DNA of 32,619 nucleotides from a virus: the IMG/VR virus record IMGVR_UViG_3300020477_000009. One strand, 5' to 3'. How positions within the stretch are numbered: the first letter of the stretch is position 1; each line of letters opens with the position of its first letter. Under the pieces are notes generated by a model. The model did no database searches, had not been told where the DNA came from, and worked only from the letters and a program-made list of their open reading frames with translations. The translations under genes and the position numbers were made by a program. Shown in pieces: positions 3,277 through 29,595 of the stretch.

Positions 3277-3489
3277 ATGAAAGACTTAATCAATAAACCA
3301 CCACATTACCGAAATAAGATAGAATGTTTAGATATAATAAAGCAACAAGTAGATGATGTTGGTTCAGTATATGAAGCCCATATATGGCGTTATCTATATC
3401 GTCACAAAAACAAAGGCGCAAACATATCTGATTTAGAGAAGGCAGAATTTTATTTAAAAAAGCTGATTAAACATTATAAGAATCTATAG
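3277..3489 (+). CDS. DUF3310-like small phage protein (70 aa)
   Basis: KPPHY...IECLDII...WRYLYRHKNKG...DLEKAEFYLKKLI matches my memory of the DUF3310 pattern (HY..e.i..i....KYl.R...K...dl.KA..Yl..l). Confidence 0.65.
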   Translation: MKDLINKPPHYRNKIECLDIIKQQVDDVGSVYEAHIWRYLYRHKNKGANISDLEKAEFYLKKLIKHYKNL

Positions 3490-3497
3490 TGAATAAT

Positions 3498-3662
3498 ATG
3501 TGTGAAGATGATAAAAAAGCTATACTAGAACATAGCATAGAGGAAGGTTTATCTTTACATGATGTGGCTTTAAAGTTTGGAGTGACTAAAAGCACGATAA
3601 GAAGATGGGCTTTGAAACATAATTTAACCTTTAAAACTAAGTCACCCTGGAGAAAGAATTAA
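3498..3662 (+). CDS. Small helix-turn-helix protein (54 aa), absent from the supplied ORF track
   Basis: My own translation: MCEDDKKAILEHSIEEGLSLHDVALKFGVTKSTIRRWALKHNLTFKTKSPWRKN. LSLHDVALKFGVTKSTIRRW is a typical HTH. Its stop overlaps the next start (TAATG at 3660-3664). An alternative GTG start at 3489 overlaps the previous stop. The ORF fills an otherwise empty 172-bp gap. Confidence 0.55.
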   Translation: MCEDDKKAILEHSIEEGLSLHDVALKFGVTKSTIRRWALKHNLTFKTKSPWRKN

Positions 3663-4252
3663 TGGTAAGCAGCATAAGAGTCACCGACAATATAAAGAAA
3701 GTGAACAGAGATCTAAAAAGAGCGCAAAAGAAAAAGATACCAGAAGCTACTAAATGGGCTATTAACAACACAGCGTTTAAGTTGCGTAAGGCCTATATGG
3801 CTCAAGCAGAAAAGAAGTTTGATAGACCTACAAGGTTTACTATCAATGCCTTTGGAGTCAGTAAAGCAACACCGAGAGATATGTCTGCGAAAGTTTTTAT
3901 AAAGGATACTCAAGCAAAATATTTAGAACCACAAATTGAAGGTGGTCAAAGCACCAAGAAGCAGAGATCAGGTTATGCAGTACCAACACAACGCCTTCCA
4001 TTGAATCAATATGGAAACATTCCAAGTAAAAAATTAACAGTAGGTGGAAGAGAAATAAGACCAACCAAGACAGGTCTTGGAGTTTACTCAAAAAGTGTTA
4101 AGGGCAAACCATCAGAGTTATTAATTGTTTTTAAAAAAGCAATAAACTACAAAAAGATATTTCCTTTCTTTCATATAGGAGAAAAATTTGTTTCAAATGT
4201 TTTTCCAAAAGAAATGGTCAAGTCCCTTAAAAAAGAACTGGCTAGAAAATAA
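3662..4252 (+). CDS. Lambda gpZ-like tail completion protein (196 aa), located away from the tail module
   Basis: Its size (196 vs 192 aa) and several segments resemble lambda gpZ as I recall it: IPEATKWAINNTA vs VPGAAAMAINRVA; SKATPRDMSAKVFI vs KRATVKNPQARIKV; and the C-terminal FPKEMVKSLKKEL vs LPKELGYALQHQL. Confidence 0.45.
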   Translation: MVSSIRVTDNIKKVNRDLKRAQKKKIPEATKWAINNTAFKLRKAYMAQAEKKFDRPTRFTINAFGVSKATPRDMSAKVFIKDTQAKYLEPQIEGGQSTKKQRSGYAVPTQRLPLNQYGNIPSKKLTVGGREIRPTKTGLGVYSKSVKGKPSELLIVFKKAINYKKIFPFFHIGEKFVSNVFPKEMVKSLKKELARK

Positions 4253-4447
4253 TGAATACCCCAAAACCCTTATACTATAAGGATCATAGGTTCTTCCCAG
4301 GGGAAGGATTGCCCCAGGTTTCACGATTTCGATATTTTCTTAGACAATATCGAAATTTAATAAGATTAAATTCAAATAACCAAACCAGTTCAGCAAACTG
4401 GAACCAGTTTGGGTTCAGTTCAAACTAAAACCGACAGTTTAAGTTCG
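4253..4447. promoter_or_regulatory. Candidate cos / terminase recognition region (a repeat-rich 195-bp gap upstream of the Nu1-like gene)
   Basis: Perfect 11-bp inverted repeat atttcgatatt (4326-4336) / aatatcgaaat (4346-4356). AACCAGTT occurs twice (4383, 4402). CAGTT occurs four times (4386, 4405, 4416, 4435). Hairpin ccagtt-cagca-aactgg at 4385-4401. The position matches lambda cos, which lies just upstream of Nu1. Confidence 0.45.
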
Positions 4448-4996
4448 ATGGCAGAAGAATTAGTGACAAGCAAGCGTGTTGCAGAGCATTTAGACATAAC
4501 GCAAGAATACGTTTCTAAATTAAAGAGCCAGGGAATTTTACCAGGTGGAAGGGGAAGGCAGAAGATGAACTTACGGGACTCTCGCCTGGCTTACATTAAC
4601 TTCCTAAGAACTAGGGCTAGATTGTCTCCCAAAGGTACAGATACCTCTATTAGTGAAGAAAAAACACGCTTAACCAAAGCGCAAGCAGATAAGGCCGAGA
4701 TGGAAGTGGAAGTTATTACTAGAGGAATGTTAAAGGCACAAGAAGTAAAGGAAGGATGGATTGCGTTTGTAAGTAATGTAAGAGCAAAGTTGTTAAACCT
4801 ACCTTCCAAGGTAGCGCATCAGGTAGTGGGGTTAGAAACTTATGCACAGGTAGAAGGATTAATTAATGAAGAAATATATGAGGTGTTAAATGAACTTGCA
4901 TCAAGTGAATTACCAGAATCCCTTAGAAGCAGTATGGAACAAAACAGCGAAAGCGTTTCTACCACCGAAGAAACTAAAAGTATCGAGTTGGGCTGA
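4448..4996 (+). CDS. terS: Terminase small subunit, lambda Nu1-like (182 aa from ATG 4448)
   Basis: N-terminal HTH (KRVAEHLDITQEYVSKLKSQGILP), then RLTKAQADKAEMEVE resembling Nu1 RLTRAQADAQELKN. It lies directly upstream of the GpA-like gene. The track start TTG 4409 adds 13 aa without support. Confidence 0.7.
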   Translation: MAEELVTSKRVAEHLDITQEYVSKLKSQGILPGGRGRQKMNLRDSRLAYINFLRTRARLSPKGTDTSISEEKTRLTKAQADKAEMEVEVITRGMLKAQEVKEGWIAFVSNVRAKLLNLPSKVAHQVVGLETYAQVEGLINEEIYEVLNELASSELPESLRSSMEQNSESVSTTEETKSIELG

Positions 4997-6740
4997 CCAA
5001 CACAGAGTATTAAGTTCTGAGTCAAGTGCTGAACCTGGCAACTGGCGAAGTAGTCGTGCTGCATATCAAATAGAAATAATGGATGCTGTTCTTGATAGAA
5101 ATATAGAAACTGTTGTTCTTATGTCCAGTTCACAAATTGGTAAGACAGAAATAATGAATAACATATTGGGTTATTACATATCTCAAGATCCCTGCCCTGT
5201 TTTAGTTATGCAACCAACTTTAGAGATGGCTAGAACGTGGAGTAAGGACCGATTAAATCCAATGCTCAAAAGCAGTAAGGTCTTAAAAGGTAAAGTAAAA
5301 GAACCAAGGGCAAAGGACAGCGAGAATACTGTACTCCACAAAAAATACGATGGTGGTTTCATTGCAGTAGTGGGGGCCAATTCAGCTAGTGGTTTGGCGA
5401 GCAGACCAGTAAGAATTTTATTAGCAGACGAAGTAGATCGCTTCCCTATAAGTGCTGGCGCAGAAGGAGATCCAGTTTCCCTGGCATTAAAAAGAACAAC
5501 TACCTTTTGGAATAGAAAAATAGTTATGGCATCAACCCCAACTATAGACGGACTATCAAGAATACAAACTGCTTTTGAATCATCAGATAAGAGAAGGTAT
5601 TTTGTTCCGTGTCCAGATTGCCATGAAATGCAAATATTAGAATGGTCAAATGTCCAATGGGATGAAGGCAAGCCAGAGACAGCCAGATATATATGTGTGC
5701 ATTGTGGTTCTCTTTTAGAAGAGAAAGAAAAAATAAAAATGATTAGAAACGGAGAATGGAGAGCAGAAGAAGAAACAAACAAGACAGCAGGATTTCATAT
5801 TAACGAATTGTATTCACCTTGGAGTACATGGGGAACAATGGCTATTAATTTTTTAGAAGCTAAGAAACATCCAGAGATATTAAAGACTTATATTAATACT
5901 TCCCTTGGTGATGTGTGGAGAGATCAAGGGGAAGAGATAGTAAGTGAAGGATTGATGGCACGAAGAGAAACATACGATGAATCGTGTATTCCCGATAACG
6001 TCCTGGTTATTACAGGTGGTGTTGATATACAAAGCGATAGATTAGAATTGCAAGTCATAGGATGGGGATTGGAATCGCACAGCTACGTTTTAGACTATCA
6101 GATATTTTGGGGTGAGACTTCTCAAGCGCAAGTGTGGGGAGAACTAGATGATTATTTAAAGAGAAGATATGAAAGAGAAAGTTTACCCTCCTTACCTATA
6201 GCGTGTGTTGGAATTGATACGGGGTATCAAACTCAAAGCTGTTATAACTTTGTAAAAAATAAAACAGGCAGAAGAATATTTGGAATTAAAGGACAATCAC
6301 AAGCAGGCAAGCCGATTGCAGGAAGACCAACCCAATCGGGCAGACAAAGAATACAACTCTTCCCTGCTGGCGTTGATACAGCAAAGGAAAATATCTTTCA
6401 ATGGCTACAAATTGATGAAGTAGGACCAGGGTATGTCCATTTCCCAAACAATATGGATGAAGAATATTTTAAACAACTTACAGCAGAGAAAAGAGCAGTC
6501 AAGTTTTACAAGGGCGAGAAGCGAGTAGTTTGGGTAGCACAAAGAGAAAGAAATGAAGCCCTTGATACGTTTGTCTATTGTTTAGTTGCTCTACATATAT
6601 TACAACCCGATTTAAAAAAAATATCTTCAAACAACAAGCCACCTAAAGAAGAGTCCATAAAAAGGAACAATCCAATCACTAATCCCACGCTTAGAACAAT
6701 CAAAAGACCTCGTAAGTCTTTTGTAAATAGTTGGAAGTAG
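4890..6740 (+). CDS. terL: Terminase large subunit, lambda GpA family (616 aa)
   Basis: Segments collinear with lambda gpA as I recall it: SSWADQHRVLS...GNWRSSRAAYQIEIMDA, FHINELYSPWSTWG, YINTSLGDVWRD, GGVDIQSDRLELQVIGWG, RERNEALDTFVYCLVAL. AGGTG lies 4 nt upstream of ATG 4890. Confidence 0.9.
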   Translation: MNLHQVNYQNPLEAVWNKTAKAFLPPKKLKVSSWADQHRVLSSESSAEPGNWRSSRAAYQIEIMDAVLDRNIETVVLMSSSQIGKTEIMNNILGYYISQDPCPVLVMQPTLEMARTWSKDRLNPMLKSSKVLKGKVKEPRAKDSENTVLHKKYDGGFIAVVGANSASGLASRPVRILLADEVDRFPISAGAEGDPVSLALKRTTTFWNRKIVMASTPTIDGLSRIQTAFESSDKRRYFVPCPDCHEMQILEWSNVQWDEGKPETARYICVHCGSLLEEKEKIKMIRNGEWRAEEETNKTAGFHINELYSPWSTWGTMAINFLEAKKHPEILKTYINTSLGDVWRDQGEEIVSEGLMARRETYDESCIPDNVLVITGGVDIQSDRLELQVIGWGLESHSYVLDYQIFWGETSQAQVWGELDDYLKRRYERESLPSLPIACVGIDTGYQTQSCYNFVKNKTGRRIFGIKGQSQAGKPIAGRPTQSGRQRIQLFPAGVDTAKENIFQWLQIDEVGPGYVHFPNNMDEEYFKQLTAEKRAVKFYKGEKRVVWVAQRERNEALDTFVYCLVALHILQPDLKKISSNNKPPKEESIKRNNPITNPTLRTIKRPRKSFVNSWK

Positions 6741-6744: not shown

Positions 6745-6777
6745 TTGACAGATTAAATATGGCACTTAATGTTTTTA
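6745..6777 (+). promoter_or_regulatory. Copy 1 of the conserved 33-nt intergenic element TTGACA-N8-ATGGCACTTAATGTTTTTA (promoter-like)
   Basis: TTGACA at 6745-6750 and TAATGT at 6767-6772 (16-nt spacer). The 19-mer at 6759-6777 matches 18/19 with 20812-20830. It lies in the 59-bp gap between terL and the gpW-like gene. Confidence 0.55.
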
Positions 6778-6799
6778 GTTTAGCTTATGAGGACATAGT

Positions 6800-7390
6800 T
6801 TGGCCAATAGATTTGATTCCGTTAATTATCCAACAAACGTACCAGACACATTGTATGTAGGGGATAACTTTCTATGGAAGAGAGATTTAACTGATTATCC
6901 CGTTGCTAGTTATTCATTAAGTTATTCTTTTCGATTACTTACTTCGGCTGCTACTGAAATAGCGTTAGGTGATTCAGTAATTACAGAAAGTGATACAAGT
7001 GTTTATACAATTAATGTTCCGAGTAGCACAACAACTGATTATACGAAAGGTGACTATACTTATCAGGAATATATAACAAAAACATCTGGATCAGAAAGAT
7101 TGGTATTAAATACAGGGTTGGTAAGTCTTAAATCTAACTTAGATGCTGATACTGGAGATCCAAGGTCAAGTGCCAGAATTATATTACAGGCCCTTGAAGC
7201 CACGATGGAAAACAGGGCTACAATAGATCAAATGTCTATGAGCATCGCTGGTAGGTCGCTTTCCCGTATGTCACCAGCAGAACTGAATGATTGGAAGTCA
7301 CACTACAAAGCGTTAGTAAGTAATGAAGATAAGAAGTCCAGGCGAGATAAAAGCGAAGCAACAGGAACACAAATTAAGGTTAGATTCTAA
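6800..7390 (+). CDS. Head-tail joining protein with a gpW-like C-terminal domain and an N-terminal extension of about 110 aa (196 aa)
   Basis: TTG start preceded by GAGGA (6789-6793) with a 6-nt spacer. The C-terminal ILQALEATMENRATIDQMSMSIAGRSLSRMSPAELNDWKSHYKALV...IKVRF resembles lambda gpW ([40 protein letters not shown]). It occupies the same position as W, between terminase and portal. Confidence 0.55.
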   Translation: MANRFDSVNYPTNVPDTLYVGDNFLWKRDLTDYPVASYSLSYSFRLLTSAATEIALGDSVITESDTSVYTINVPSSTTTDYTKGDYTYQEYITKTSGSERLVLNTGLVSLKSNLDADTGDPRSSARIILQALEATMENRATIDQMSMSIAGRSLSRMSPAELNDWKSHYKALVSNEDKKSRRDKSEATGTQIKVRF

Positions 7391-8877
7391 TGGCATGGTA
7401 TAAAAATATATTTAAAAGAAAAATAAAGAACTCAATAAAGTTTAGGTCATTCGCAGGCGCACAAGGAGGGAGATTATTCGCAGATTGGAAGACTTCAAAT
7501 GCAACAGCAGATCAAGAGATATTCAATTCATTATCCACTTTAAGAAATAGAAGTAGAGCATTAGCTAGAAATGATAGTTATATTTATAGATATTTGAATA
7601 TGTTGGTGAGCAATGTTATTGGACCAAACGGCATCAGGGTTGCGTCAAAGGCCAGAAATGATAATGGTGAACTAGATTTACAAGGGAACAAAGAGGTAGA
7701 AGCTGCTTTCTCAGAATGGGGGCAAGTTGGAAGTTGTACTTTAAATGGCATACAATCCTTCTTGGATTGCCAAAAGTTATTCATTGAATCTGTAGCCAGG
7801 GATGGAGAAGCATTAATAAGAACAGTCCGTTCTAATAGCAACCGATTTGGTTTTGCTATTCAGTTTTTAGAAGCAGATCATTTAGACGAGAACCTTTCAA
7901 CCAAGAACCAGGAATCAGGTAATTCTATCAAGATGGGAGTGGAAGTAGATAGCTTTGGAAAGCCAGAAGCATATTATTTATTAAAAAACCATCCAGGCAA
8001 TTCACCCTATTATAGTGATTATGCTGATCCGAGTAGATATGTAAAAGTTCCTGCTAATGAACTCATACATGGATATTTACCCAATAGAGCAGAACAGACT
8101 AGGGGTGTCCCCTGGACTTCGGCAGTTTTAGGCAGAGCAAAGATGTTAGATGGGCTAGAAGAGTCTGCAGTAGTAAATGCCAGAGTCGGTGCATCTAAAA
8201 TGGGATTCATTGTCAGCCCCGATGGTGAACAATATGTGGGAGAAGATACAGAAGATACTTATACTCAAATAATGGATGCAACACCAGGAAGTATGGAACA
8301 ACTACCATCAGGAAGTGAATTTCGCAAGTGGGATCCAGAATATCCAAACATGATGTTTGATCCATTTCAAAAAGCTATACTTAGAGGAATCGCATCAGGT
8401 CTTAATGTTTCTTATGTAGATTTAGCTAATAACTTGGAAGGGGTGAATTATTCCAGTATTAGACAGGGAGTAATGGAACAAAGAGATTATTACAGAACAA
8501 TACAAAAATTCGTTATTCAACATATGGTTAGGCCAATATATTTAAAATGGCTTGAATATGCTATGACTACGAAACAGGTAAGCATACCAATTACCAAGTA
8601 TGATAAATTTGCCAATCAAGTTATTTTCATTCCCCGAAGTTGGTCATGGATAGATCCACAGAAGGAAATGAACGCCAATGTAGTTGGACTACAGAACGGG
8701 CAGATAACTATGTCTGATATTCAGTCTTCTATGGGACGTGATCCAGAAGAACTTTTCGAGGAGTTATCCAGAGAAAAGGCACTCGCAGATCAATACGGAG
8801 TAGAGACAGCATTTTCACCCTATGGTGCAACCAAGACTCCTGTTGAACCAGATCTAACGGGAGGAGATAATGAATAA
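7390..8877 (+). CDS. Portal protein, lambda gpB family (495 aa)
   Basis: TAATG overlap with the previous gene. QTRGVPWTSAVLGRAKMLDGLEESAVVNARVGA and ILRGIASGLNVSYVDLANNLEGVNYSSIRQG parallel lambda gpB QTRGANVFYSVMEQMKMLDTLQNTQLQSAIVKA and LLRYIAAGLGVSYEQLSRNYAQMSYSTARAS. Confidence 0.88.
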   Translation: MAWYKNIFKRKIKNSIKFRSFAGAQGGRLFADWKTSNATADQEIFNSLSTLRNRSRALARNDSYIYRYLNMLVSNVIGPNGIRVASKARNDNGELDLQGNKEVEAAFSEWGQVGSCTLNGIQSFLDCQKLFIESVARDGEALIRTVRSNSNRFGFAIQFLEADHLDENLSTKNQESGNSIKMGVEVDSFGKPEAYYLLKNHPGNSPYYSDYADPSRYVKVPANELIHGYLPNRAEQTRGVPWTSAVLGRAKMLDGLEESAVVNARVGASKMGFIVSPDGEQYVGEDTEDTYTQIMDATPGSMEQLPSGSEFRKWDPEYPNMMFDPFQKAILRGIASGLNVSYVDLANNLEGVNYSSIRQGVMEQRDYYRTIQKFVIQHMVRPIYLKWLEYAMTTKQVSIPITKYDKFANQVIFIPRSWSWIDPQKEMNANVVGLQNGQITMSDIQSSMGRDPEELFEELSREKALADQYGVETAFSPYGATKTPVEPDLTGGDNE

Positions 8878-9009: not shown

Positions 9010-10977
9010 ATGGAAGAAATCATTGAAGAAGCCGAAGAAAAGGAAGAAGAGGAAACTGAAGATTTAGAAATCGAAGTAGAGTTGGAATCTGATTCTGAGG
9101 AACAGCAAACTGAGGATGAACAGCAAACTGAGGATGAACGAAGTTTTGCTGATAAGAAGCAATTTCGTTCTGCTGCTATTCGCAATGAATATATAGACAC
9201 CGAGAACAGGCGTGTTCGTATAGCACTTACGAGTGAGCAACCAGTAAGTCGTTCCTTTGGTTTAGAAATATTAGATCATTCCGAAGATTCGATTGATACG
9301 TCATTTATTGGTCAAGGTAGAAGTCCACTTTTATTAGACCATGATATGACTCGTCAAATAGGGGTGGTCGAAAACTATTTCATTGATAAAGATGCGAAGA
9401 GAACTATCGCAGAAGTGCGTTTCGGAAGAAGCGAACTTGCTGATGAAATTTTTAATGATGTGCAAGATGGCATACGTCAAAATGTCTCAGTCGGGTACAA
9501 CATAACAAGCATGGAAAGAGATTCATCTTTTGATGAACCTGCTTATCGAGTGGCTTTCCAACCATTAGAAGCATCCATAGTAAGCGTTCCAGCAGATCAA
9601 AGTCAGAATGTGGGAATCGCAAGAAGTGATGATGCAGCTAAAGAATTGCCAGAAATAGAAGTAGAGGTAATAAAAGCCGAAGCTGAGAGTTCTGGTGTAA
9701 TAATTAAAAATAACAACATTGGAAAAACAATGGAACAAAAAGAAGAAATAAACGTTGAAGAAGTGAAAGCTACAACTGTTTCAGAAACACAAAAAAGAAT
9801 CGCAAAAGAAAATGATGAGATTCTTGAATTGGGTGCGAGACATCAACAGCAAGAACTTTCGAGACAAGCAATTAAAGATGGAACTGATCTTGAGACATTC
9901 AGAGGACAACTGCTTAACACTATACCTTCTGGACAACCTTTGGAAACTGCCGAAATAGGTTTGACTGAAAAAGAATCCAGAGACTTTAGTATTTTAAAGG
10001 CCGTTTATGCTATGTCTAACCCTACTAATCGTAAGGCACAAGAAGACGCTAAATTTGAATTTGAGGCCTCTCAGGCAGCAAAAGAAAAATACGGAAGAAA
10101 TTCCGAAGGTCTTACTTTACCAAGTGAAGTAATGGGTACATGGACCAGGGACATTAACACAACAGACGATGCAGGCGGCATCGGAGAAGATTTCAGAAGA
10201 GGAGACTTCATCAATGCACTAAGAGATGCGTCTGGTGTTATTAGAGCAGGGGCAACTATATTCCCTGATCTAGTAGATAACGTCAAGATTCCTAAACAAA
10301 CTGGCGTATCAACTGCAACCTGGATTGCAACCGAAGGTGGTGCCGTGACAGAATCAGAACTTACTTTAGGTTCAGTCACGATGTCTCCAAATACCATATC
10401 TGCGTACACAGATATAACTAACAAGATGCTTGCTAATTCCTCTCTATCAATAGAGACATTAGTAAGAAATGATCTTGCTGCTGGTATCGGTAAAGTAGTG
10501 GATACGGGTGCTATGACGGGTTCTGGAAGTTCTGGTCAACCGACAGGAATAAACTCTGCAACTGGCGTTAATAGTGTCACATTAGATACAGCTTCAACCC
10601 CAACTTGGGCCGAAGCAGTAGAAATGGAATCATTGGTTCTAGCTGATAACGTACCATTTAACAGACCTGGTTATTTAACTAACTCAACTGTAGTAGGAAA
10701 CCTAAAAACTACAGCGAAAGCTAGTAATACAGCAGTCTTTATTATGGACGGAGATGGTAGAGTCAACGGACATCCTGTGACTATCAGTAATGCTGTAGCG
10801 AGTGGTTATATTTACTTTGGAATGTGGTCTGATTTATTGATTGGGTTTTTCGGCTCGATTGATATTTTAACGGATCCATATACGGCCGCTACGAACAACT
10901 TAACTAGAATTAGGGCTACCCAATTCTGTGATGTTGCTGTTAGACATGGACAATCGTTCACCAAGGCAACAGCTTAA
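9010..10977 (+). CDS. Single-ORF fusion (655 aa): acidic N-terminus, HK97-type (S78) prohead protease, coiled-coil scaffold-like linker, HK97-fold major capsid protein
   Basis: Protease part: RIALTSEQPVSRSFGLEILDH...SPLLLDHD...NVSVGYN...PLEASIVSVPAD (His and Ser motifs of the HK97 gp4 type). Middle part: a charged, heptad-like stretch (MEQKEEINVEEVKA...ILELGARHQQQELSRQAIKDG). C-terminal part: ...GGIGEDFRRGDFINALRDASGV...TESELTLGSVTMSPNTISAY..., typical of HK97-family capsid proteins. Confidence 0.8.
   Translation: MEEIIEEAEEKEEEETEDLEIEVELESDSEEQQTEDEQQTEDERSFADKKQFRSAAIRNEYIDTENRRVRIALTSEQPVSRSFGLEILDHSEDSIDTSFIGQGRSPLLLDHDMTRQIGVVENYFIDKDAKRTIAEVRFGRSELADEIFNDVQDGIRQNVSVGYNITSMERDSSFDEPAYRVAFQPLEASIVSVPADQSQNVGIARSDDAAKELPEIEVEVIKAEAESSGVIIKNNNIGKTMEQKEEINVEEVKATTVSETQKRIAKENDEILELGARHQQQELSRQAIKDGTDLETFRGQLLNTIPSGQPLETAEIGLTEKESRDFSILKAVYAMSNPTNRKAQEDAKFEFEASQAAKEKYGRNSEGLTLPSEVMGTWTRDINTTDDAGGIGEDFRRGDFINALRDASGVIRAGATIFPDLVDNVKIPKQTGVSTATWIATEGGAVTESELTLGSVTMSPNTISAYTDITNKMLANSSLSIETLVRNDLAAGIGKVVDTGAMTGSGSSGQPTGINSATGVNSVTLDTASTPTWAEAVEMESLVLADNVPFNRPGYLTNSTVVGNLKTTAKASNTAVFIMDGDGRVNGHPVTISNAVASGYIYFGMWSDLLIGFFGSIDILTDPYTAATNNLTRIRATQFCDVAVRHGQSFTKATA
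9100..9135 (+). repeat. Perfect 2 x 18-bp tandem repeat (gaacagcaaactgaggat) encoding EQQTED twice in the acidic N-terminus
   Basis: Read directly: 9100-9117 equals 9118-9135. Confidence 0.9.
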
Positions 10978-10991
10978 TAGCTAAATAGTGT

Positions 10992-11020
10992 GAAGGGGCT
11001 AATAACCCCTTCCACCTTTT
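10992..11020 (+). terminator. Rho-independent terminator-like hairpin after the capsid gene
   Basis: gaagggg (10992-10998), loop ctaataa, ccccttc (11006-11012), followed by cacctttt. It lies 15 nt after the capsid stop codon. Confidence 0.6.
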
Positions 11021-11031
11021 AAGGAAAAGAT

Positions 11032-17067: not shown

Positions 17068-17469
17068 ATGAAAGAGTTAGAAATAATTAAGTTTGCAGAG
17101 AAAGAATACAAGACTCCTTTCAAATGGGGGGTTAATGATTGCAATACTTTAATTCTCAAATTTTTAGATGAAATATATGGATGGGATGTTTTAGATATTG
17201 CGTTTGAAAGATATTCCAACAGAAAGGAAGCAATTAAATTACAAAAAGAATTACCCACTCTCACCGAAGTTTGTTTAAATAATGGGGCAAGAAAAATACC
17301 TCCATCAAGAGCAAGAATGGGCGATATATTAATAATAAGCAAAAGATACTTTGAATTGGGGCATATATGTCTCGGTTCTAAGGTTCTATCGGTAATAGAA
17401 GAGGAAATATCCGATATGGCATTTATTCCCTCTTTTAATGATTTTGATTGGGGGTTAAGGGTAGAGTAA
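17068..17469 (+). CDS. NlpC/P60-type tail tip protein, RcGTA g14 / C-terminal half of lambda gpK-like (133 aa)
   Basis: FKWGVNDCNTLILKF has a candidate catalytic Cys, followed later by GDILIIS and LGHICLG. It lies between the L-like and J-like genes. Confidence 0.55.
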   Translation: MKELEIIKFAEKEYKTPFKWGVNDCNTLILKFLDEIYGWDVLDIAFERYSNRKEAIKLQKELPTLTEVCLNNGARKIPPSRARMGDILIISKRYFELGHICLGSKVLSVIEEEISDMAFIPSFNDFDWGLRVE

Positions 17470-20400
17470 TGGGTGGAGCATTAGCAAAAGCGTTTGTCTG
17501 GATAGCTGCTACGATAGGGCAAGCAGTAATGGTCTTCGGTGCTGGTGTAAAGACAGCAGCCGTAATAGGTATGATTGTCACCACAGCAGTTTTTGTTGCA
17601 GCAGGTTCGGCCCTTATGGGACGTTTAGTAAGAACACCAGATATAGGGTTGGCACAACAAGGATCTATCATACTTTCAAATTCCCCTTCCAATACTGCGC
17701 CAATTCCTGTTATTTACGGCTCAAGAAGGGTTGGTGGAACACGATATTTTGTTGGTACAAGTAATGGCTTTGAAAATGGACAAATGACCAATAAGAATGA
17801 TTATTTACACATGATCATCGGGTTGGGAGAAGGACCTGTTTCAGAAATAACGGCTGTTTATTTAAACAACGTAGAAGCGTGGCCCAATAAGGATAATCGT
17901 TTCGTACACAGCAATCCAAATGGCAATCCCGTTGTTTATATCGAACCACATTTAGGAGAAGCAGACCAGGAAGCTAGTGCTGAATTAGTACATATCGCAA
18001 ACAATAATATATTAGCTTATGAACCAGAACCAGGGACTATACCTGGCATCGGAATACCCATACCAGGATCTTCTCCCTTCTCACAACCCTTTGAATGGAC
18101 AGAGGATCACCGATTAAGGGGTGTAGCTTATCTTTATGTGAGATTACATTTCGATCAAGAGATATTTGCGTCAGGAGTTCCCAATATTACTGCCGATATT
18201 AAAGGAAGACCAGTAAAAGATACCAGACAGCTAGTGAATGGCGTAGTGGGTACAGCTATCACTCGATATAGCAACAATCCTGCATTATGTATTCGTGATT
18301 ATTTAACTAATACCATCTATGGAAGGGCAATATCTGAGGATTTAATAGATGACACTTCTTTTGAAGCAGCAGCTAACTATTGTGATGAAGAGGTGACTTT
18401 TGAATATGTAGAAGATGGCTTTGGTAAATCTGCTACTCAGAAACGATACACACTAAACGGAGTAGTGGATACTTCTGAAAGCAGTTTAAATATTGTTAAT
18501 AAAATGCTAACTGCTTGTAGGGGTTCTTTGGTCTTTAGTGGTGGTAAGTATAAGCTAGTATTAGATAAGGCCGAAACGGCTGCGCTTACTTTTGATGAAT
18601 CAAATGTGATGGGAGATTACGAAATAACATTAGCAGGAAAAGATACTCTAGCTAATAGAGTTGAAGCATCTTTCTTTAATCCCGAAAATGAATGGCAAGC
18701 AGATTTGGCCTATGAAGAAAATACACCAGGAAGAGAGGTTTATGATAATGGATTGTTGTTAGAAAAGAAGATTGAACTCCCATTTACTGCTAATAGGATA
18801 ATGGCTCAATATATTGCTAGACAGAATCTTTCTGCTTCAAGAAATAATATCATTTTAAGTTTTAAGACCACGCAAGAGGGGTTGTTAGCAGAAATAGGCG
18901 ATGTTATTTATGTGAAGTTAGAAGCCCCAGGTTGGGATACTCTTAATTCTAATGCTGGTAAAAAATTTAGAGTGATTCAAATGGAAATAGAAGCTACGGA
19001 TGAAATTAAAATAACAGCCATAGAATATAGCGATGTGGTTTATCAGCTTTACCCACCAGCATACAGAAGTTCATTAGGTACAGCATTACCCCATTTAAAC
19101 GTAGTGCTTCCACCAACCGATGTGACAGCGAGTGAAACCTTATTCTTTAGTTCACCTAAAGTAATAAACCGAGTTAGCATGAGTTGGACACCACCAGAAG
19201 TAGCTTATGCCAGATCTTATGATGTTGCCTATAAAAAACTCAATGATACAGAATTTACAGCCATAGCTACTACCACAGCCAAACAATATACTTTCGATAA
19301 TTTAAAACCAGGCACTTATACTTTTAATGTTCGTGCTAAGAATAACGCTGGATTTACTTCGGCTTATAGTCAAACTACCCTAGTAGTTAAGGGAGTCACT
19401 TCTTTACCTGCTGTTAATCCACCTGCTATAACGGGGGTTGTGGAATCCTTAGTGAGTTCTACGTTGGGTTCTGGTGTAAAAGCGAAGGCGAGATTAACGT
19501 GGAGTGCTATAGCAAATAGTGAATGGGAAGATATAGGAGTTAATATAGAGAGTTATGAAATACAATATAAATTAACTTCTGAAGCTACGAATTATGAATC
19601 TCCTGGTTCTTCGACAGGAACTTATTTTGATTTCTTCGATATAACACCAGGCAATTACAATATAAGAGTTAGGGCTATTAACGATGCAGGCGTGAAGAGT
19701 AATTACGCTGAAACCACTACTGAAATAGTGGCATTAACTGATCCCCCTGCTAATGTATCTAACTTTTATATGAGAGCAGATGGTGTAGAAGCCCATTTAT
19801 CCTGGGAAGAAACAACCGATTTAGATGTTAAGGTTGGAGGAACGTTTGAAATAAGACATTCTGTAGCTACATCGGGGGCAACCTGGATAGCATCTACACC
19901 CATAGGTGATGCCGTACCTGGTTCTTCTAATGGAGTGACGATGCCACTTTTGGTAGGTACTTATTTAATAAAAGCAGTAGATTCCACTTCTCATAAATCG
20001 GATTCTGCTACTACTATAGTTAATACCATATCCCCATCGGTTTTGCAGAAGAGAACTTATCAGACAGTCACCGATACTGCCTTTGCAGGAACAAAAACAA
20101 ATATGGTGGTCAGCGATGGTAAATTAGAACTAGAAGCCGACACACTAATTGATGATATGACAACTCTAATGGATGTATGGGGTGAGTTTGATTCCATAGG
20201 TGGTGTTGATTTAGAAGGTACTTATGAATTTAGCGATAAAATAGATTTAACTCTAGCAGGAGGGGCCACATTATCAGGTGGTGTGACTTTTACTACAGAA
20301 AGTCTTAATGATTACTTAGATATGAGAACTACAAATTTCGATTCATGGGCTGATTTCGATTACAACACTATTTTTGATGATGTAGTGACTACATTATATG

Positions 20401-20801
20401 TATCTTCTACAACGGATGATCCTGCTAGTGGTGGCGCAACATGGAGTGATTGGTCTGAATTTACTATAGGAAACTATTATGGTAGGGGTTTTAAATTTAA
20501 ACTAAAGGTAAATGTAGGAGATTCTTCCCATCAAATTAATGTTTCTCAATTACAAGCGCAAGCAGAGGTTTATTATAGATTCGAGTCTGAGGGAGTCACC
20601 ACAGATGCTTCGGGTTCTGCTTTAACTTTTGATTCATCTTTTAGAGCAGCCCCACAAATTAATATCACAGCGCAAGATCTGGCTACGGGTGATTATTACA
20701 CTATTACGAGTCCATCAGCAACAGGATTCACTTTGAAATTTTTTAACTCAAGTGGAACGGGTGTTTCTCGTTCTGCTTATTATATAGCAAGGGGATATTG
20801 A
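17469..20801 (+). CDS. Central tail fibre / host specificity protein, lambda gpJ / RcGTA g15-like, with three FN3-like domains (1110 aa from ATG 17469)
   Basis: TAATG overlap with the previous gene. Gly/Ala-rich hydrophobic N-terminus as in g15-type proteins. NPALCIRDYLTN..YG is typical of J-like proteins. Three FN3-like repeats lie at about nt 19107-20030 (MSWTPPE...YDVAYKK; LTWSAI...YEIQYKL; LSWEETTD...FEIRHS). Confidence 0.8.
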   Translation: MGGALAKAFVWIAATIGQAVMVFGAGVKTAAVIGMIVTTAVFVAAGSALMGRLVRTPDIGLAQQGSIILSNSPSNTAPIPVIYGSRRVGGTRYFVGTSNGFENGQMTNKNDYLHMIIGLGEGPVSEITAVYLNNVEAWPNKDNRFVHSNPNGNPVVYIEPHLGEADQEASAELVHIANNNILAYEPEPGTIPGIGIPIPGSSPFSQPFEWTEDHRLRGVAYLYVRLHFDQEIFASGVPNITADIKGRPVKDTRQLVNGVVGTAITRYSNNPALCIRDYLTNTIYGRAISEDLIDDTSFEAAANYCDEEVTFEYVEDGFGKSATQKRYTLNGVVDTSESSLNIVNKMLTACRGSLVFSGGKYKLVLDKAETAALTFDESNVMGDYEITLAGKDTLANRVEASFFNPENEWQADLAYEENTPGREVYDNGLLLEKKIELPFTANRIMAQYIARQNLSASRNNIILSFKTTQEGLLAEIGDVIYVKLEAPGWDTLNSNAGKKFRVIQMEIEATDEIKITAIEYSDVVYQLYPPAYRSSLGTALPHLNVVLPPTDVTASETLFFSSPKVINRVSMSWTPPEVAYARSYDVAYKKLNDTEFTAIATTTAKQYTFDNLKPGTYTFNVRAKNNAGFTSAYSQTTLVVKGVTSLPAVNPPAITGVVESLVSSTLGSGVKAKARLTWSAIANSEWEDIGVNIESYEIQYKLTSEATNYESPGSSTGTYFDFFDITPGNYNIRVRAINDAGVKSNYAETTTEIVALTDPPANVSNFYMRADGVEAHLSWEETTDLDVKVGGTFEIRHSVATSGATWIASTPIGDAVPGSSNGVTMPLLVGTYLIKAVDSTSHKSDSATTIVNTISPSVLQKRTYQTVTDTAFAGTKTNMVVSDGKLELEADTLIDDMTTLMDVWGEFDSIGGVDLEGTYEFSDKIDLTLAGGATLSGGVTFTTESLNDYLDMRTTNFDSWADFDYNTIFDDVVTTLYVSSTTDDPASGGATWSDWSEFTIGNYYGRGFKFKLKVNVGDSSHQINVSQLQAQAEVYYRFESEGVTTDASGSALTFDSSFRAAPQINITAQDLATGDYYTITSPSATGFTLKFFNSSGTGVSRSAYYIARGY

Positions 20802-20830
20802 CAAAGGGATGATGGCACTTATTGTTTTTA
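20798..20830 (+). promoter_or_regulatory. Copy 2 of the conserved 33-nt element TTGACA-N8-ATGGCACTTATTGTTTTTA
   Basis: TTGACA at 20798-20803 overlaps the J-like stop codon. TATTGT at 20820-20825 follows a 16-nt spacer. The element lies in the 54-bp gap before the tail-fibre gene. Confidence 0.55.
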
Positions 20831-20855
20831 AATCTAATATTAAAAGGTATATTTA

Positions 20856-22478
20856 ATGGCACAACACGATTACGTCATAGCAAATGCAAATGGGGCCACA
20901 GTTAGAGCAGATATAAATAATGTTCTACTTGCCATATCTTCTACTAACTCTGGTACTTCTGAACCTTCTACCACTTACGCTTATATGTTGTGGTTAGACA
21001 GCGACAATAATCTATTAAAATTAAGAAATGCAGCCAATGATGGCTGGATTACTTTGGGATTATCAATTACTGCGAGTAATACAGTAGATATTAATGGTGG
21101 TGCTATTGATGGAACACCGATAGGTGCTAGTTCTACATCAACTGGTGCTTTTACAACAATTACAGCGAGTTCTACTATATCTGGTACTTCTATAACAGCT
21201 TCTACTTCCCTCTTAACACCTTTAATCGAATATACGGATGGTGATGATGCTATAACGATAGCCGATGGTGGTGGAGTGACTATTGCTGATTTAACGGCCA
21301 CAACAGCCGATATAAATGCTGGTTCTATAGATAACGCTACAGTTGGATCTAGTACAGCTAATACGGGTGCATTTACTACTTTATCGGCTTCAGGGGCCAC
21401 CGATTTAAACAGTACATTAGCAATAAGTGGTAATGTATCAATGGATGGTTCAGCGAATGAATTAAGATTTTATGAAGGCGCAAATTATGTAGGATTTGAA
21501 GCACCTGCTTTAACTGGTGATCAGATATGGGTGTTGCCTACAGCAGATGGAAGCGCAGACCAGGTATTAAAAACAGATGGTTCAGGAAACCTTGGTTGGG
21601 CTACAGCAGGTGGTGGGGGTGCTTCTGATATTGATGATTTAAGTGATTGCTTAGTTGAAAATAATTCTATGTGGTTAGGAAATGATCCTTCTAGCACAAC
21701 CAGTACAGCGAGTTATAACGTGGCAGTTGGGATAACGGCATTGGATAGCATCACTACAGCAGATAACACTACTGCGATTGGTTATAATGCAGGAGAAACT
21801 TGGACAACTAATGGTAATAATGTAGCACTAGGTTATAATGCTGGTGAAACAACAGGAACAACTTGTACTGATGGGGTTTGGATTGGTGCAAATGTTGGTA
21901 GTACAGAAGCTATTGATGGTGGTAAAGCAGGACAAGTAGTTATTGGTGCTTCAGCACAAGTTGGCAATCACGAAAACACAGTAGCTATAGGAAAGTCTTG
22001 CCCTGGTCAGGGAAATAACACAGTCACTTTTGGTAAGAGTGCAAGTTCCAAAGTATCTATAAATTGGGATTCTGGCACGGCTTGGTCGTATCCTTCAGAT
22101 GAAAGAATGAAAGAAAATATAGCCGATATGCCAACTTCAGTAGGTTTATCTTTTATTAATACTTTAAAACCAAGAACTTTTACATGGAGAAAGGTAGAAG
22201 ACTACGATGAGTCGCTTACAAGTTTAGGAGGAACAATGAAAATACCTGATGATACATCTAAAAAATCAGATGGTACACAATATGGTTTTGTTGCTCAAGA
22301 AGTTAAAACAGCTATGGAAGATGCAGGTATTACGCCTGATGCCGATGGTGGTGGTTATGGTTTTTGGACTCAAGCATCGGTAGGAACGCAGCAAGGCGTA
22401 GCCAAAGAAGATTTAATACCTTCATTAGTGAAGGCAATTCAAGAGTTATCAGCAAAAATTACAGCATTAGAAAGTTAA
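20856..22478 (+). CDS. Tail fibre with a C-terminal intramolecular chaperone (Peptidase S74) domain (540 aa)
   Basis: Common tail-fibre N-terminus (ANGATVRADINNVLLAISSTNSG...LWLDSDNNLLKLRNAANDGWITLG). Repeated IDGTPIGASS..TGAFTT modules. C-terminal SDERMKENI (from nt 22095)...QYGFVAQEV...LIPSLVKAIQELSAKITALE matches the S74 auto-cleaving chaperone signature. Confidence 0.8.
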   Translation: MAQHDYVIANANGATVRADINNVLLAISSTNSGTSEPSTTYAYMLWLDSDNNLLKLRNAANDGWITLGLSITASNTVDINGGAIDGTPIGASSTSTGAFTTITASSTISGTSITASTSLLTPLIEYTDGDDAITIADGGGVTIADLTATTADINAGSIDNATVGSSTANTGAFTTLSASGATDLNSTLAISGNVSMDGSANELRFYEGANYVGFEAPALTGDQIWVLPTADGSADQVLKTDGSGNLGWATAGGGGASDIDDLSDCLVENNSMWLGNDPSSTTSTASYNVAVGITALDSITTADNTTAIGYNAGETWTTNGNNVALGYNAGETTGTTCTDGVWIGANVGSTEAIDGGKAGQVVIGASAQVGNHENTVAIGKSCPGQGNNTVTFGKSASSKVSINWDSGTAWSYPSDERMKENIADMPTSVGLSFINTLKPRTFTWRKVEDYDESLTSLGGTMKIPDDTSKKSDGTQYGFVAQEVKTAMEDAGITPDADGGGYGFWTQASVGTQQGVAKEDLIPSLVKAIQELSAKITALES

Positions 22479-22765: not shown

Positions 22766-22916
22766 GGCTGAGTGCCAACAACGTTGGCGAGAAAATTATA
22801 GACGTTTGGAGTCTATAGAAACACAATTAACCACCCTTAATTCACAAATTAGAATATCCCTGGTGTTCCTGGTAGTCACCCTGGGTAGTTTTTTCTTTGT
22901 CTCGCTTGCTCTTTGA
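22722..22916 (+). CDS. Tail-anchored membrane protein (64 aa): coiled coil plus a single C-terminal TM helix
   Basis: IAEIDTRLKSHEAECQQRWRENYRRLESIETQLTTLNSQI followed by ISLVFLVVTLGSFFFVSLAL. It overlaps the previous ORF by 44 nt, and there is no alternative in-frame ATG. Confidence 0.55.
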   Translation: MGQIAEIDTRLKSHEAECQQRWRENYRRLESIETQLTTLNSQIRISLVFLVVTLGSFFFVSLAL

Positions 22917-23932
22917 TGATAAAGAAAAAATTATTATTATTAGCTTTGGGATTGGTATTTTTTAATTCAGCTTATAGTGAACAAACAGGAGATTGTACTG
23001 CTGGCACAGATAATTGTGAGCAAAACAGTCTAAATACCAGCAATAATACAACTACAAACAACACTAATAATAATATATCGAGTGGAGGGCTAACCAACCA
23101 GAATACAAATATTAATACCTCTAATAATACGTCTAATAGCACCTCTAATAGCACCTCTAATAGCACAACAAACAATACTTCCGTATCAACAAATAATAAT
23201 ATAAATCAAAATTCGTCTTCGGTTAACACAGTTGCCACTACTACAAGCGTGGCAACAAACAATTCTACAGTTAGTTCAACAACCACTTCTGACGTCACGC
23301 AGAATGTGAATAGTGTATCTACATCTAAAATAGAGAATCAAAGTTCATCAATAGCACAAAATACGAACATTAATCAAAGCACTAGTGAATCTAAGGTAGA
23401 GACAGAAAATAGGAATATTAATCAAACACAGGCAGAAAATAGGAATACGAATATTAATAAAAGCGATTCCACCCAAGTAATAAGGCAAGAAATAAAATCA
23501 AAAACACCAGTTGCTTCGGCAGTAGCCCCATCGGTTCTCTCGTATTCGCAAGACATTTGTATATCGGGAGTTTCGGGAGGATTTCAGAATCAGATTTTTG
23601 GTTTATCGGGTGGCGCAGGGGTAGTGGATGAAAACTGCGTTCTTTTGAAATTATCAAGAGCATTACATTCTCAAGGTATGAAAGTAGCTAGTATATCTAT
23701 ACTTTGCAGCCAAAAAGTAGTGTTTACTTCCATGATGCAAGCTGGCACTCCCTGTCCATATTTCGGCAAAGTAGGAGAGGAGGCCCGTAAGGCATGGGAA
23801 GAAAATAAGGAAGACAGACCAGATTATGAGGACTTAAAAGCAAATTATATTCGTAAATGTAAAGGAAAAAAGAACTCAAAGGGGATAAGAAAATCAAAGA
23901 GAACTTGTGCTAAAGAATTTCGCAATAGCTAG
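22916..23932 (+). CDS. Secreted Asn/Ser/Thr-rich protein with a Cys-containing C-terminal domain (338 aa from ATG 22916)
   Basis: TGATG overlap with the previous gene. Sec-type leader MIKKKLLLLALGLVFFNSAYS-EQ. About 190 aa of N/S/T low complexity. Then DICISGVSGGFQNQIFGLSGGAGVVDENCVLLKL...ILCSQ...GTPCPYFG. Confidence 0.75.
   Translation: MIKKKLLLLALGLVFFNSAYSEQTGDCTAGTDNCEQNSLNTSNNTTTNNTNNNISSGGLTNQNTNINTSNNTSNSTSNSTSNSTTNNTSVSTNNNINQNSSSVNTVATTTSVATNNSTVSSTTTSDVTQNVNSVSTSKIENQSSSIAQNTNINQSTSESKVETENRNINQTQAENRNTNINKSDSTQVIRQEIKSKTPVASAVAPSVLSYSQDICISGVSGGFQNQIFGLSGGAGVVDENCVLLKLSRALHSQGMKVASISILCSQKVVFTSMMQAGTPCPYFGKVGEEARKAWEENKEDRPDYEDLKANYIRKCKGKKNSKGIRKSKRTCAKEFRNS
23117..23164 (+). repeat. 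Four tandem 12-bp units (acctctaatagc; two perfect, two degenerate) encoding the TSNS repeats
   Basis: Read directly: 23117 acctctaataat, 23129 acgtctaatagc, 23141 acctctaatagc, 23153 acctctaatagc. Confidence 0.85.
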
Positions 23933-26066
23933 TCTTAGCTTTCTTTTTTGTAGTCTGTTGGGGGCTACTTATACTTATGAAGCCAATAAAAATCTATTTG
24001 ATTTAACGGGAGAATCAGGAACTACCAGCTTAAATTCTGGTGACGACAGCTTATCTTCTGCTTTTAATTTAGATTTTACTTTTGGTTTTTATGGAGAATC
24101 TTTTACTTCGGCTAGAATGGCCACGAATGGCTGTCTTCATTTTGGTTTGGGTACAGGAAGCATAAACTACAATAATTATTGTGGTGATTACACCCCAGAT
24201 CCACTTCCCCACACCACTTATACTTTATATCCCTTTTATACTGATTTAATAAGAGATAGTGATTCTAAAATGTTAGCTAAAAACTTCACAGATAAGGCAG
24301 TTTTTGGTTGGTATAACTTACGGGAATACAATCGTAGTGGTTCTGATAATAGTTTTGAGGTAGTTCTTTGGACTAATGATACTTATGAATTTAGATATGG
24401 AGAATTAGATATTATTAAGCATGATGTGTTAATTGGGGAACAGGGTAATTCTACAGAAAATTATACTTATGTTTATTTTGATGAATGTAGCACAGGAACT
24501 ACCAATTCGAGTAATTGCGTCAGTTATGATTGGAACTCAAGTAGTAATTCTTATAATACAGCACTAGAGGATGGAGGTTCTCTTGCCAATAACGAAGCGT
24601 GTTTAAATGATCCATTAAGCCATACTACTTGCCCCACTTATAACGATGCGCTGTTTGATTATGAGTGTGAAAGAGATTCCCAACATTCTCCGTCTTGCCC
24701 TGGATATAGCTTTCAAGATTCTGTAGCTTATTTTGATTCGTCAGATATTGATTATGGCTATGAAGAAGATTATTACTTAGAAGAATTATACTTAGCTGGT
24801 AGTTGTATGGACGATCCTTCTTATTGCTACGATGATCCTTATTATGGCATGGAATTTACCGATGCCGAATGGTACGAAATAGACTTAAATGAGTTTGGTC
24901 AAGAGCAAGTAGATGATTGGTACGGAACAGAAGTAGAATTTAATAACGAAGGGTACATGGAATGGGAATCTTCCCCGTTAGAGAGTTGGGAAGAGTTAGA
25001 TTATCAAATGGATTTATACGATAATTTTAATGAATTAAGTTATCATGGTGAACAACATATTGAAGTTTTTGGTGCAGAAGAACTAATAGATTTATATACT
25101 TTTGATACCATAATTAGAGAAGGATTAATTAATGAAGAAGAGAACTATACCGATATTGCAACGCTTGAAGAACTGGATGAATGGTTTGAAGAAGAAATGC
25201 AAGAACATTTTTCCGAAGAAGAAATGGTATCCCACGAAGAGGAATTTGAAGAAGATCCCCAGGAAGAACACCAAGAGGAGATATTCGAAGAAGAAGCCGT
25301 TGAAGAGATCTACGAAGAAATAGAAGAAAGAGTAGCCGAAGAAGAGATTGAAAGAGAAGAAGTAGAGGAAAAAAAGGGTGGAATTACCTCTCAGCAATTA
25401 AATGTGGTTGCTCAGACTATATTAGTTGCCAACAATAGTGTTAATAAAGGATCTTTTTCTAACACTTCTAACTTATCCTCGCAAAGTTCCGAGCAGTCCG
25501 ATAACACGAAGAAATCAACCAGTAGTAATATTAGTGGAATATCTACTAGTAGTTCTCCTAGTATTTCCGATCAAATACAAGCAGCCCAATTTCAAACTAA
25601 TACAGTTTTATCTATGAATGATACGGGGGCAGCAAGTGGCGTAAACAACCCATTAACCACCCTGCCTGGGGTAAGTACCAATTTGAGTGTTTCGGATGCT
25701 GGTGTGAAGGATATACAGGTTAAAATTGATGCTGCTGTATCTGGTACGAGTAATACTTCCGAAGCAGATACTATAGCTAATCAAATTATTGCTCAAAATA
25801 TAAAAGACCAACAAGAAGAACAACAATCCCTCCAAGAAGAAACGGGCAAATACGGGGATGAAACTTCTTTAATTGCTTATTTAGATTATGTGCCTGGTTT
25901 TGATGCTTACAGGAATGTTAGCATCCCTAAAGCCGATACCTGGTACGAATCAAAGACCATCTATGAAGATGTAAAAATAAAAGATAATGTTGAGGTTTTT
26001 TATTCTTTAGCATCAACAAGTTTCAATAAGTTGGATGAAATGCTAAAATCAGAACCCAGGTTATAA
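23907..26066 (+). CDS. Large secreted modular acidic protein (719 aa, GTG start)
   Basis: Modules in order: (1) hydrophobic leader LKNFAIASLSFLFCSLLGA; (2) an N-terminal domain with an NIDO-like pattern (FNLDFTFGFYGESFTSARMATNGCLHFG...LYPFYTDL...FGWYNLREY...NSFEVVLWTNDTYEFRYG); (3) a Cys/Tyr/Asp-rich part (CPTYNDA..C..D..HSPSCPGYS); (4) a Glu-rich block of about 80 aa (~nt 25135-25375); (5) a Ser-rich block (~25450-25570); (6) a C-terminal globular part. Confidence 0.75.
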   Translation: MLKNFAIASLSFLFCSLLGATYTYEANKNLFDLTGESGTTSLNSGDDSLSSAFNLDFTFGFYGESFTSARMATNGCLHFGLGTGSINYNNYCGDYTPDPLPHTTYTLYPFYTDLIRDSDSKMLAKNFTDKAVFGWYNLREYNRSGSDNSFEVVLWTNDTYEFRYGELDIIKHDVLIGEQGNSTENYTYVYFDECSTGTTNSSNCVSYDWNSSSNSYNTALEDGGSLANNEACLNDPLSHTTCPTYNDALFDYECERDSQHSPSCPGYSFQDSVAYFDSSDIDYGYEEDYYLEELYLAGSCMDDPSYCYDDPYYGMEFTDAEWYEIDLNEFGQEQVDDWYGTEVEFNNEGYMEWESSPLESWEELDYQMDLYDNFNELSYHGEQHIEVFGAEELIDLYTFDTIIREGLINEEENYTDIATLEELDEWFEEEMQEHFSEEEMVSHEEEFEEDPQEEHQEEIFEEEAVEEIYEEIEERVAEEEIEREEVEEKKGGITSQQLNVVAQTILVANNSVNKGSFSNTSNLSSQSSEQSDNTKKSTSSNISGISTSSSPSISDQIQAAQFQTNTVLSMNDTGAASGVNNPLTTLPGVSTNLSVSDAGVKDIQVKIDAAVSGTSNTSEADTIANQIIAQNIKDQQEEQQSLQEETGKYGDETSLIAYLDYVPGFDAYRNVSIPKADTWYESKTIYEDVKIKDNVEVFYSLASTSFNKLDEMLKSEPRL

Positions 26067-26068
26067 CT

Positions 26069-26434: not shown

Positions 26435-26437
26435 TAT

Positions 26438-27992: not shown

Positions 27993-27998
27993 GTATGG

Positions 27999-29594: not shown

Positions 29595-29595
29595 A

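Follow-up and report, generated by a model that had tools for sequence, protein, structure and literature searches.

Two conserved intergenic elements of a marine siphovirus are probable host-type internal promoters with matched distal blocks

Two copies of a 33-nt element in the genome of a lytic marine siphovirus, one ahead of the head genes and one ahead of the tail fibre, are probably internal promoters for a host RNA polymerase of the sigma-70 type. Promoters of this type are an ordinary kind of feature. The new result, and on the present comparison the sole unusual aspect of the elements, is the matched evolution of their distal block (positions -19 to -7), a clean and quantifiable signal at sites 14 kb apart. 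If the elements are host-type promoters only, their description amounts to routine annotation; if the matched block does not stem from gene conversion, it points to a phage regulator and offers a route to its identification. For uncultured marine phages there are practically no transcription maps; in this case two probable internal promoters could be located by sequence comparison alone, and they provide start sites for the head and fibre blocks that can be put to the test.

The stretch of DNA analysed, referred to as the window (32,619 nt), is a complete, circularly permuted genome of a lambda-like marine siphovirus of ~32.5 kb. Positions 1-77 and 32543-32619 are identical, and this 77-nt terminal overlap, which leaves 32,542 unique bases, indicates a circularly closed assembly. 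Contigs with 99.9% identity, including NCBI MK892534.1 (32,542 bp), come from many ocean metagenomes. The phage is a member of the CRP-822-type marine phage family, whose gene order it matches, and its nearest isolate is Roseobacter phage CRP-811, with 47% identity in the MCP. The family is globally abundant, with hundreds of complete genomes, and SAR86 or SAR11 are the predicted hosts of its low-G+C members: published predictions name SAR86 for the low-G+C subgroup V and SAR11 or NAC11-7 for the low-G+C members of subgroup III (PMC12629253). The same paper contains no promoter analysis, and the word 'promoter' occurs in it 0 times. An INPHARED megablast with 18.6 kb of the window gave no match. 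Host assignment via a genome scan was rejected; it yielded a single 10.9-kb contig binned as Dehalococcoidia. A capsid homologue is labelled Flavobacteriales; the two labels conflict, and both contigs are probably phage DNA. We collected relatives via the connector protein, J, capsid homologues and a gpU alignment. The RecE-like protein as an anchor recovered zero relatives among metagenome contigs, the endolysin recovered one near-identical strain and nothing else, and a search for holin-like homologues reached SU10-like podovirus contigs, not relatives.

The genes and signals around the elements are listed below. Tail genes lie between capsid and J, and an accessory cassette follows the fibre, with the endolysin next.

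4409-4996, + strand: TerS
4890-6740, + strand: large terminase subunit, TerL (phrog_15, E 2e-251), upstream neighbour of copy 1
6800-7390, + strand: head-tail joining protein (connector), TTG start, first gene 3' of copy 1
7390-8877, + strand: portal, after head-tail joining
9010-10977, + strand: protease-major capsid fusion, after the portal
10990-11022, + strand: terminator-like hairpin after the capsid gene
17448-20801, + strand: central tail fibre, J-like, upstream neighbour of copy 2
20856-22478, + strand: tail fibre/spike, first gene 3' of copy 2 (Peptidase_S74 in identical strains)
27094-27537, + strand: endolysin
27510-27959, + strand: PDDEXK_5-like, last + strand gene before copy 3
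28204-29969, - strand: short leftward operon, with early rightward genes next

The hairpin after the capsid gene reads GAAGGGG...CCCCTTC followed by CACCTTTT (MFE -17 kcal/mol, z -3.0). This hairpin probably acts as an attenuating terminator that separates head from tail genes, and it is background to a segmented transcription map. Upstream of TerS, a 196-aa gene (3662-4252; phrog_1924/phrog_27) is tail-completion-like. Its homologue stands immediately 3' of a gpU-like gene in four distant relatives (L087, L095, L102, L134), which indicates that this structural gene was relocated ahead of the packaging genes in the window lineage. A four-gene cassette at 22913-26914 is found in the same order and with 47-87% amino acid identity in SU10-like podovirus contigs (L149 6485-10477, L150). 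It encodes a secreted Asn/Ser/Thr-rich 339-aa protein, proteins of 719 and 121 aa, and a holin-like protein of 158 aa. The cassette looks like a horizontal transfer of a module between unrelated phages, probably with a common host.

The 9-mer TGGCACTTA occurs in the window at +6760, +20813 and +27975 only, and its reverse complement has no exact occurrence. The three copies are all intergenic and on the + strand, and they are preceded at 9 nt by TTGACA, TTGACA and TTGACT, respectively. These results reproduce what the original prediction had reported on copy number, intergenic placement and the TTGAC(A/T) at a fixed distance. A 16-nt spacer places the -10 hexamers at TAATGT, TATTGT and TAGTCT, and copies 1 and 2 have ATGGCACTTAWTGTTTTTA in common. 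The three elements are composed as follows.

6745-6777, + strand: copy 1 (first junction, J1); -35 TTGACA 6745-6750; spacer 6751-6766, distal part ATGGCACT; -10 TAATGT 6767-6772; T-rich discriminator 6773-6777; predicted start ~6779-6781; leader with SD GAGGA 6790-6794 and the head-tail joining TTG at 6800
20798-20830, + strand: copy 2 (second junction, J2); -35 TTGACA 20798-20803; spacer 20804-20819; -10 TATTGT 20820-20825; discriminator TTTTA; predicted start ~20832-20834; leader with SD AAGG 20844-20847 and the tail-fibre ATG at 20856
27960-27992, + strand: copy 3; -35 TTGACT 27960-27965; spacer 27966-27981; -10 TAGTCT 27982-27987

Copy 1 begins 4 nt past the TerL stop, and the TGA stop codon of the J-like gene (20799-20801) lies inside the -35 hexamer of copy 2. 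Both copies are co-oriented with the genes that follow and lie 28-31 nt ahead of start codons with an SD.

The threefold occurrence of TGGCACTTA is by itself unremarkable, as 669 9-mers have at least three + strand copies in the window versus 422 in shuffles. The composite pattern TTGAC[AT]-N9-TGGCACTTA was observed three times versus 0 in 300 dinucleotide shuffles. TTGACA itself is found on the + strand only twice, both times within the elements, against a shuffle mean of 12.6 and a minimum of 4. This roughly six-fold depletion on the coding strand is consistent with selection against stray -35 elements. A weight matrix trained on relatives only gave 33 bits for copy 2, 30 bits for copy 1 and 13.6 bits for copy 3, with a shuffle maximum of 15.4 bits, and copy 2 ranked among the best promoter-like sites of the window. 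Neither the word count nor the matrix scan found a copy in the window beyond the three, and the possibility raised earlier that further copies might be scattered inside genes can be set aside.

Copy 1 occupies the junction between TerL and the head-tail joining gene and copy 2 that between J and the tail fibre, and the element recurs at both in dozens of relatives from metagenomes, as had been anticipated for equivalent positions of related genomes. At the first junction it is kept down to 35-46% connector protein identity, and at the second in relatives with 75-90% identity of the fibre N-terminus. More distant relatives have a promoter-like site at the first junction only, copy 2 being missing, and in CRP-811 the TerL and connector genes abut and the element is absent. 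In a conservation profile built from 34 distinct versions of the element, TTGAC is invariant (2 bits per position), the last A of the -35 is present in 27 of 34, and the spacer is 16 or 17 nt long and nothing else. T-12 and A-11 are likewise invariant, at 2 bits each, and T-7 is found in 31 of the 34 (1.6 bits). The non-consensus positions G(-18) (1.7 bits), C(-14) (1.3 bits) and G(-8) are also conserved, T(-13) carries 0.95 bits, and the proximal spacer is nearly free (0.2-0.7 bits). As read from these versions, the invariant positions are a sigma-70-type promoter signature, and they coincide with the geometry originally proposed, that is, a -35, a 16-nt spacer and a weak -10.

Two broader scans returned matches that we rejected. 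An exact scan of IMG/VR for ATGGCACTTAWTGTTTTTA gave 11 matches, all to one unrelated AT-rich sequence without TTGACA, and thus a chance match multiplied by near-identical contigs. A 28-nt pattern scan recovered the relatives plus two further matches that are likely due to chance, one in a primase-like ORF on the other strand (L049) and one in an unrelated 74-kb contig (L050).

From the anatomy and conservation of copies 1 and 2 we infer that RNA polymerase initiates there and that it does so with a sigma factor of the sigma-70 type. Both copies would lie inside a long rightward transcription unit, in which the host polymerase would use the -35 TTGACA, the 16-nt spacer, the weak -10 TAnnGT and the T-rich discriminator. 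Transcription would start ~7 nt past the -10 and yield a leader of 20-25 nt carrying the SD; with the relatives included, SD-bearing leaders measure about 20-30 nt. Copy 1 would thereby re-initiate or boost expression of the head genes (connector, portal and protease-capsid), and copy 2 that of the tail fibre and the downstream accessory and lysis genes. Against this reading stand -10 hexamers that agree with the consensus at no more than 3-4 of 6 bases, an uncultured host, and the absence of the element from CRP-811 and of copy 2 from more distant relatives. The original prediction had placed the elements at the start of late gene blocks. This is imprecise: copies 1 and 2 precede the head and fibre genes, but TerS, TerL and the tail-completion-like gene lie upstream of copy 1, and no + strand gene at all follows copy 3.

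We analysed the co-variation of the two copies in six lineages that have both junctions: the window, L146, L061/L148, L160, L057/L147 and L072/L082/L169. Over positions -19 to -7, copies 1 and 2 were 0.95 identical within the same genome versus 0.77 when permuted, and none of the 720 permutations other than the true pairing of J1 and J2 attained the observed identity. Over the 9-nt proximal spacer, identity was 0.35 versus 0.34, and 346 of the 720 permutations attained the value of the true pairing. The distal block present in both copies of each lineage is given below.

window: TGGCACT-TAwTGT
L146: TGGCACT-TATGGT
L061: TGGCACT-TATCGT
L160: TGGAACk-TAAkGT
L057: GCTACA-TAGTGT
L072: TGCAACT-TACGGT

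Since the distal block agrees between the two copies of a genome and changes from lineage to lineage, independent evolution of paralogous sites is excluded. Either short-patch conversion has occurred repeatedly and left the proximal spacer untouched every time, or a lineage-specific reader has exerted selection on the block. Short-patch gene conversion could have produced the co-variation. That the distal block is also read by a lineage-specific component encoded by the phage is possible, with the balance somewhat against it; the candidate reader could be a protein of the repressor/operator type that overlaps the -10, or one that modifies RNA polymerase. The earlier suggestion that the conserved spacer is the site of a phage-specific factor thus gains indirect backing from the within-genome co-variation, but no such factor was found.

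In its more specific form, this idea holds that positions -19 to -7 are the site of an unrecognised, fast-evolving specificity factor encoded by the phage, a repressor, activator or RNA polymerase modifier unlike sigma, Q, MotA or Ogr. We offer it tentatively and regard it as rather unlikely. If it were true, the factor would co-evolve with its sites like lambdoid immunity specificity, yet control structural-gene promoters, and a motif repeated in a sister clade, TACAACAACTTAsGG, would be the site used by a diverged form of this system.

No sigma, Q, antiterminator or activator domain was found in the window ORFs with PHROGs and Pfam beyond a 57-aa HTH_23 protein (3489-3662). Its segment DVALKFGVTKSTIRRWA resembles sigma-70 region 4.2, with a weak match to Pfam Sigma70_r4 (E about 1e-3). 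As the reader, the 57-aa protein was rejected on account of its recognition helix, which is invariant across lineages. A conserved 187-aa protein was also discarded in this role; its AlphaFold model (pLDDT 80) had no fold match in the PDB. The 196-aa protein was rejected as a split-sigma partner, being a tail-completion-like structural gene. PDB sequence searches with the 196-, 187- and 57-aa proteins were uninformative.

Several known systems share features with the elements. Immunity-specific operators of lambdoid phages co-evolve with the repressor; those of lambda, 17-bp pseudo-palindromes read by CI/Cro, come in groups of three within the early control region. In lambda PR/OR1 and PL/OL1, as in the window elements, a spacer of 16-17 nt follows a -35 close to consensus (TTGACA/TTGACT), and their operators, like the distal block, are repeated within the genome, lie over the distal spacer and the -10, and differ by lineage. 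The distal block thus resembles an operator in being repeated, lineage-specific and overlapping the core promoter. Unlike lambda operators, however, the window blocks are single, non-palindromic and located at structural-gene junctions. By inspection, their dyad symmetry is limited to AC-N5-GT, and no cognate repressor was found among the ORFs.

The late promoters of P2/186/P4 (Ogr/B/Delta) and Mu (C) likewise occur as several similar copies before head, tail/fibre and lysis operons. They combine a poor -35 with an upstream activator site (in P2, TGT-N12-ACA near -55), whereas the -35 of the window elements is perfect, the specific block overlaps the -10, and a search for zinc-finger or C-like activators was empty. 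Factor-dependent late promoters of the P2 Ogr, Mu C and T4 gp55 types therefore differ from the elements, which have a consensus -35 and occur in a genome whose ORFs yielded neither a sigma nor an activator domain. T4 middle promoters (MotA box) also pair a sigma-70 -10 of the form TAnnnT with a phage-specific upstream motif, but in the window the -35 is retained and MotA/AsiA homologues are absent. The sister-clade motif TACAACAACTTAsGG, which at two of three junctions stands beside -10-like hexamers without a -35, is closer to the T4 middle layout. Lambda PR'-qut likewise has a lineage-specific element between -35 and -10 in a late promoter with TTGACT/TTGACA. It is present in one copy per lambdoid genome and needs a promoter-proximal sigma-dependent pause element as well as Q, and unlike in that system neither a pause element nor Q is detectable in the window.

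In the strongest rival to the host-promoter reading, the distal block is primary and the elements are promoters for a specificity factor encoded or modified by the phage, such as a divergent sigma, a sigma-appropriation protein or a Q-like protein acting between -35 and -10. The lineage-specific, within-genome match of the distal block would fit this proposal, as would the conserved non-consensus G(-18), C(-14) and G(-8) and the presence in a more distant clade of its own repeated motif, TACAACAAC(T)TAsGG. However, a perfect host-type TTGACA is found in nearly all versions, and T-12, A-11 and T-7 are retained, so that unmodified host sigma-70 should suffice. The empty search for sigma, Q and antiterminator domains and the lack of a sigma-like fold in the 187-aa candidate argue in the same direction, and a Q-type mechanism is ruled out in that no -10-like pause element downstream of the elements is conserved among the versions in relatives. 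We consider this explanation improbable.

A second rival views the repeats as short homology linkers at module boundaries, through which co-infecting relatives exchange modules, the likeness to promoters being secondary or coexisting. The three copies indeed lie at the boundaries of the packaging, head-tail, fibre-accessory-lysis and early-left modules, mosaicism is highest in the interval from copy 2 to copy 3, where the SU10-like cassette lies, fibre genes diverge directly past their conserved N-terminus, and the phage encodes a RecE-like exonuclease. The shared stretch is merely 15-24 nt long, though, and conservation is not even but falls on promoter-defining positions and leaves the proximal spacer free. 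The element is strand-specific and keeps a fixed distance to start codons, linkers would leave the invariant 16/17-nt spacing unexplained, and there is little chance that this is what the elements are.

The element might instead act as RNA on read-through transcripts, as a processing site, a protein-binding site or a structured leader. It is strand-specific and probably transcribed from upstream, given that no terminator precedes copies 1 and 2. Yet no terminator-like site was called at the elements, RNAalifold found 0 conserved pairs in 17 element versions, the folding energy of the element equals that of shuffles (z ~ +0.2), and Rfam and tRNA searches gave no match. Two separately conserved hexamers at fixed spacing are the signature of a DNA promoter, and a role as RNA is very unlikely.

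Slightly less probable still is that the element marks the start of conserved micro-ORFs coupled translationally to the downstream genes, an alternative put forward in the original prediction. Such ORFs exist: an ATG lies within copies 1 and 2 and opens MALNVF... (33 codons from 6759) and MALIVF... (14 codons from 20812), the stop of the second overlaps the fibre ATG, and ATG, TTG or GTG is frequent at this position (A 21, T 23, G 32 of 34). Their coding nature does not hold up. In L004, L013, L057 J1 and L038 J3 the start is replaced by ACG, and among the versions codon positions 1 and 2 vary (GCA, GAA, CAA, CTA) whereas position 3 is invariant, the reverse of coding constraint. Length, frame and stop also vary, the ORF of L032 running past the fibre ATG; no SD is conserved upstream, and the promoter's own transcript would begin 3' of the ATG.

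Sigma-54 promoters, suggested by the identity of TGGCAC with the -24 consensus, can be dismissed with near certainty, as they had been before: the pattern TGGCAC-N5-TTGCW is absent from all copies even with 2 mismatches allowed, relatives show TGCAAC, TGGAAC or CGCTAC in place of TGGCAC, and neither an activator nor a UAS was found.

Within the host-promoter reading, copy 3 is a member that has either degenerated or specialised. It is the weakest of the three, its 13.6 bits falling inside the shuffle range, and starts directly after the stop at 27959; it is nevertheless kept in 99.5%-identical strains (L055). In the lineage of L038, L041, L042 and L048, a third element of the form TTGAC[AGT]-N9-[CT]GCAACTTACAAA stands exactly 7 nt ahead of the ATG of a holin-like gene (L038 16578-16615, L048 19145-19182, and also L041 and L042). 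This gene is a homologue of window gene 26438-26914, and the endolysin is next. The -10 of the third element is TACAAA, and the gap of 7 nt to the ATG is constant although its bases differ (TTGACGC or TTAAAGG), which suggests a leaderless lysis mRNA. Since window gene 26438-26914 arrived within the SU10-like four-gene cassette, copy 3 may be displaced or vestigial; it may be what is left of the promoter found ahead of the holin-like and endolysin genes in the related lineage.

A G/C-rich hairpin (27997-28035, + strand) begins at the predicted start of copy 3 and has no T-run on either strand; the region 27985-28110 that contains it folds with an MFE of -24.6 kcal/mol (z -2.4). Copy 3 may thus fire a short transcript, capped by a 5' hairpin, antisense into the leftward operon. 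After the hairpin, a 161-nt segment (28042-28202) is missing from the 99.5%-identical strains L055 and L158. The segment holds a strong + strand promoter-like site, TTGACC-17 nt-TATTAT with TG (28102-28130), that faces antisense into the leftward operon.

The sister clade, with capsids 60-64% identical to that of the window, carries a different repeated motif, TACAACAAC(T)TAsGG or TACAACAA(C)(T)TAsGG. It was found in L059 (2720-2746, 7629-7655 and 21490-21516), at J1 and J2 of L062 and at J1 of L014, L015, L088 and L090, that is, in the early region, between TerL and the connector and between J and the fibre. At the TerL-connector junction the TTGACA element follows it closely; at the early and J-fibre sites it adjoins -10-like TATTAT, TAATAT and TATGAT, with no clear -35.

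The window contains no leader palindrome. At the TerL-connector junction of distant relatives (L099, L121, L126, L127, L132, L110, L112, L117, L086 and L143), a perfect or near-perfect palindrome, TAGATTAATCTA or TAGATATATCTA, is located ~5-10 nt past the -10, and these leader palindromes could be operators. In L005-L010, TTGCAGTTGCAA occupies the palindrome position of the same junction.
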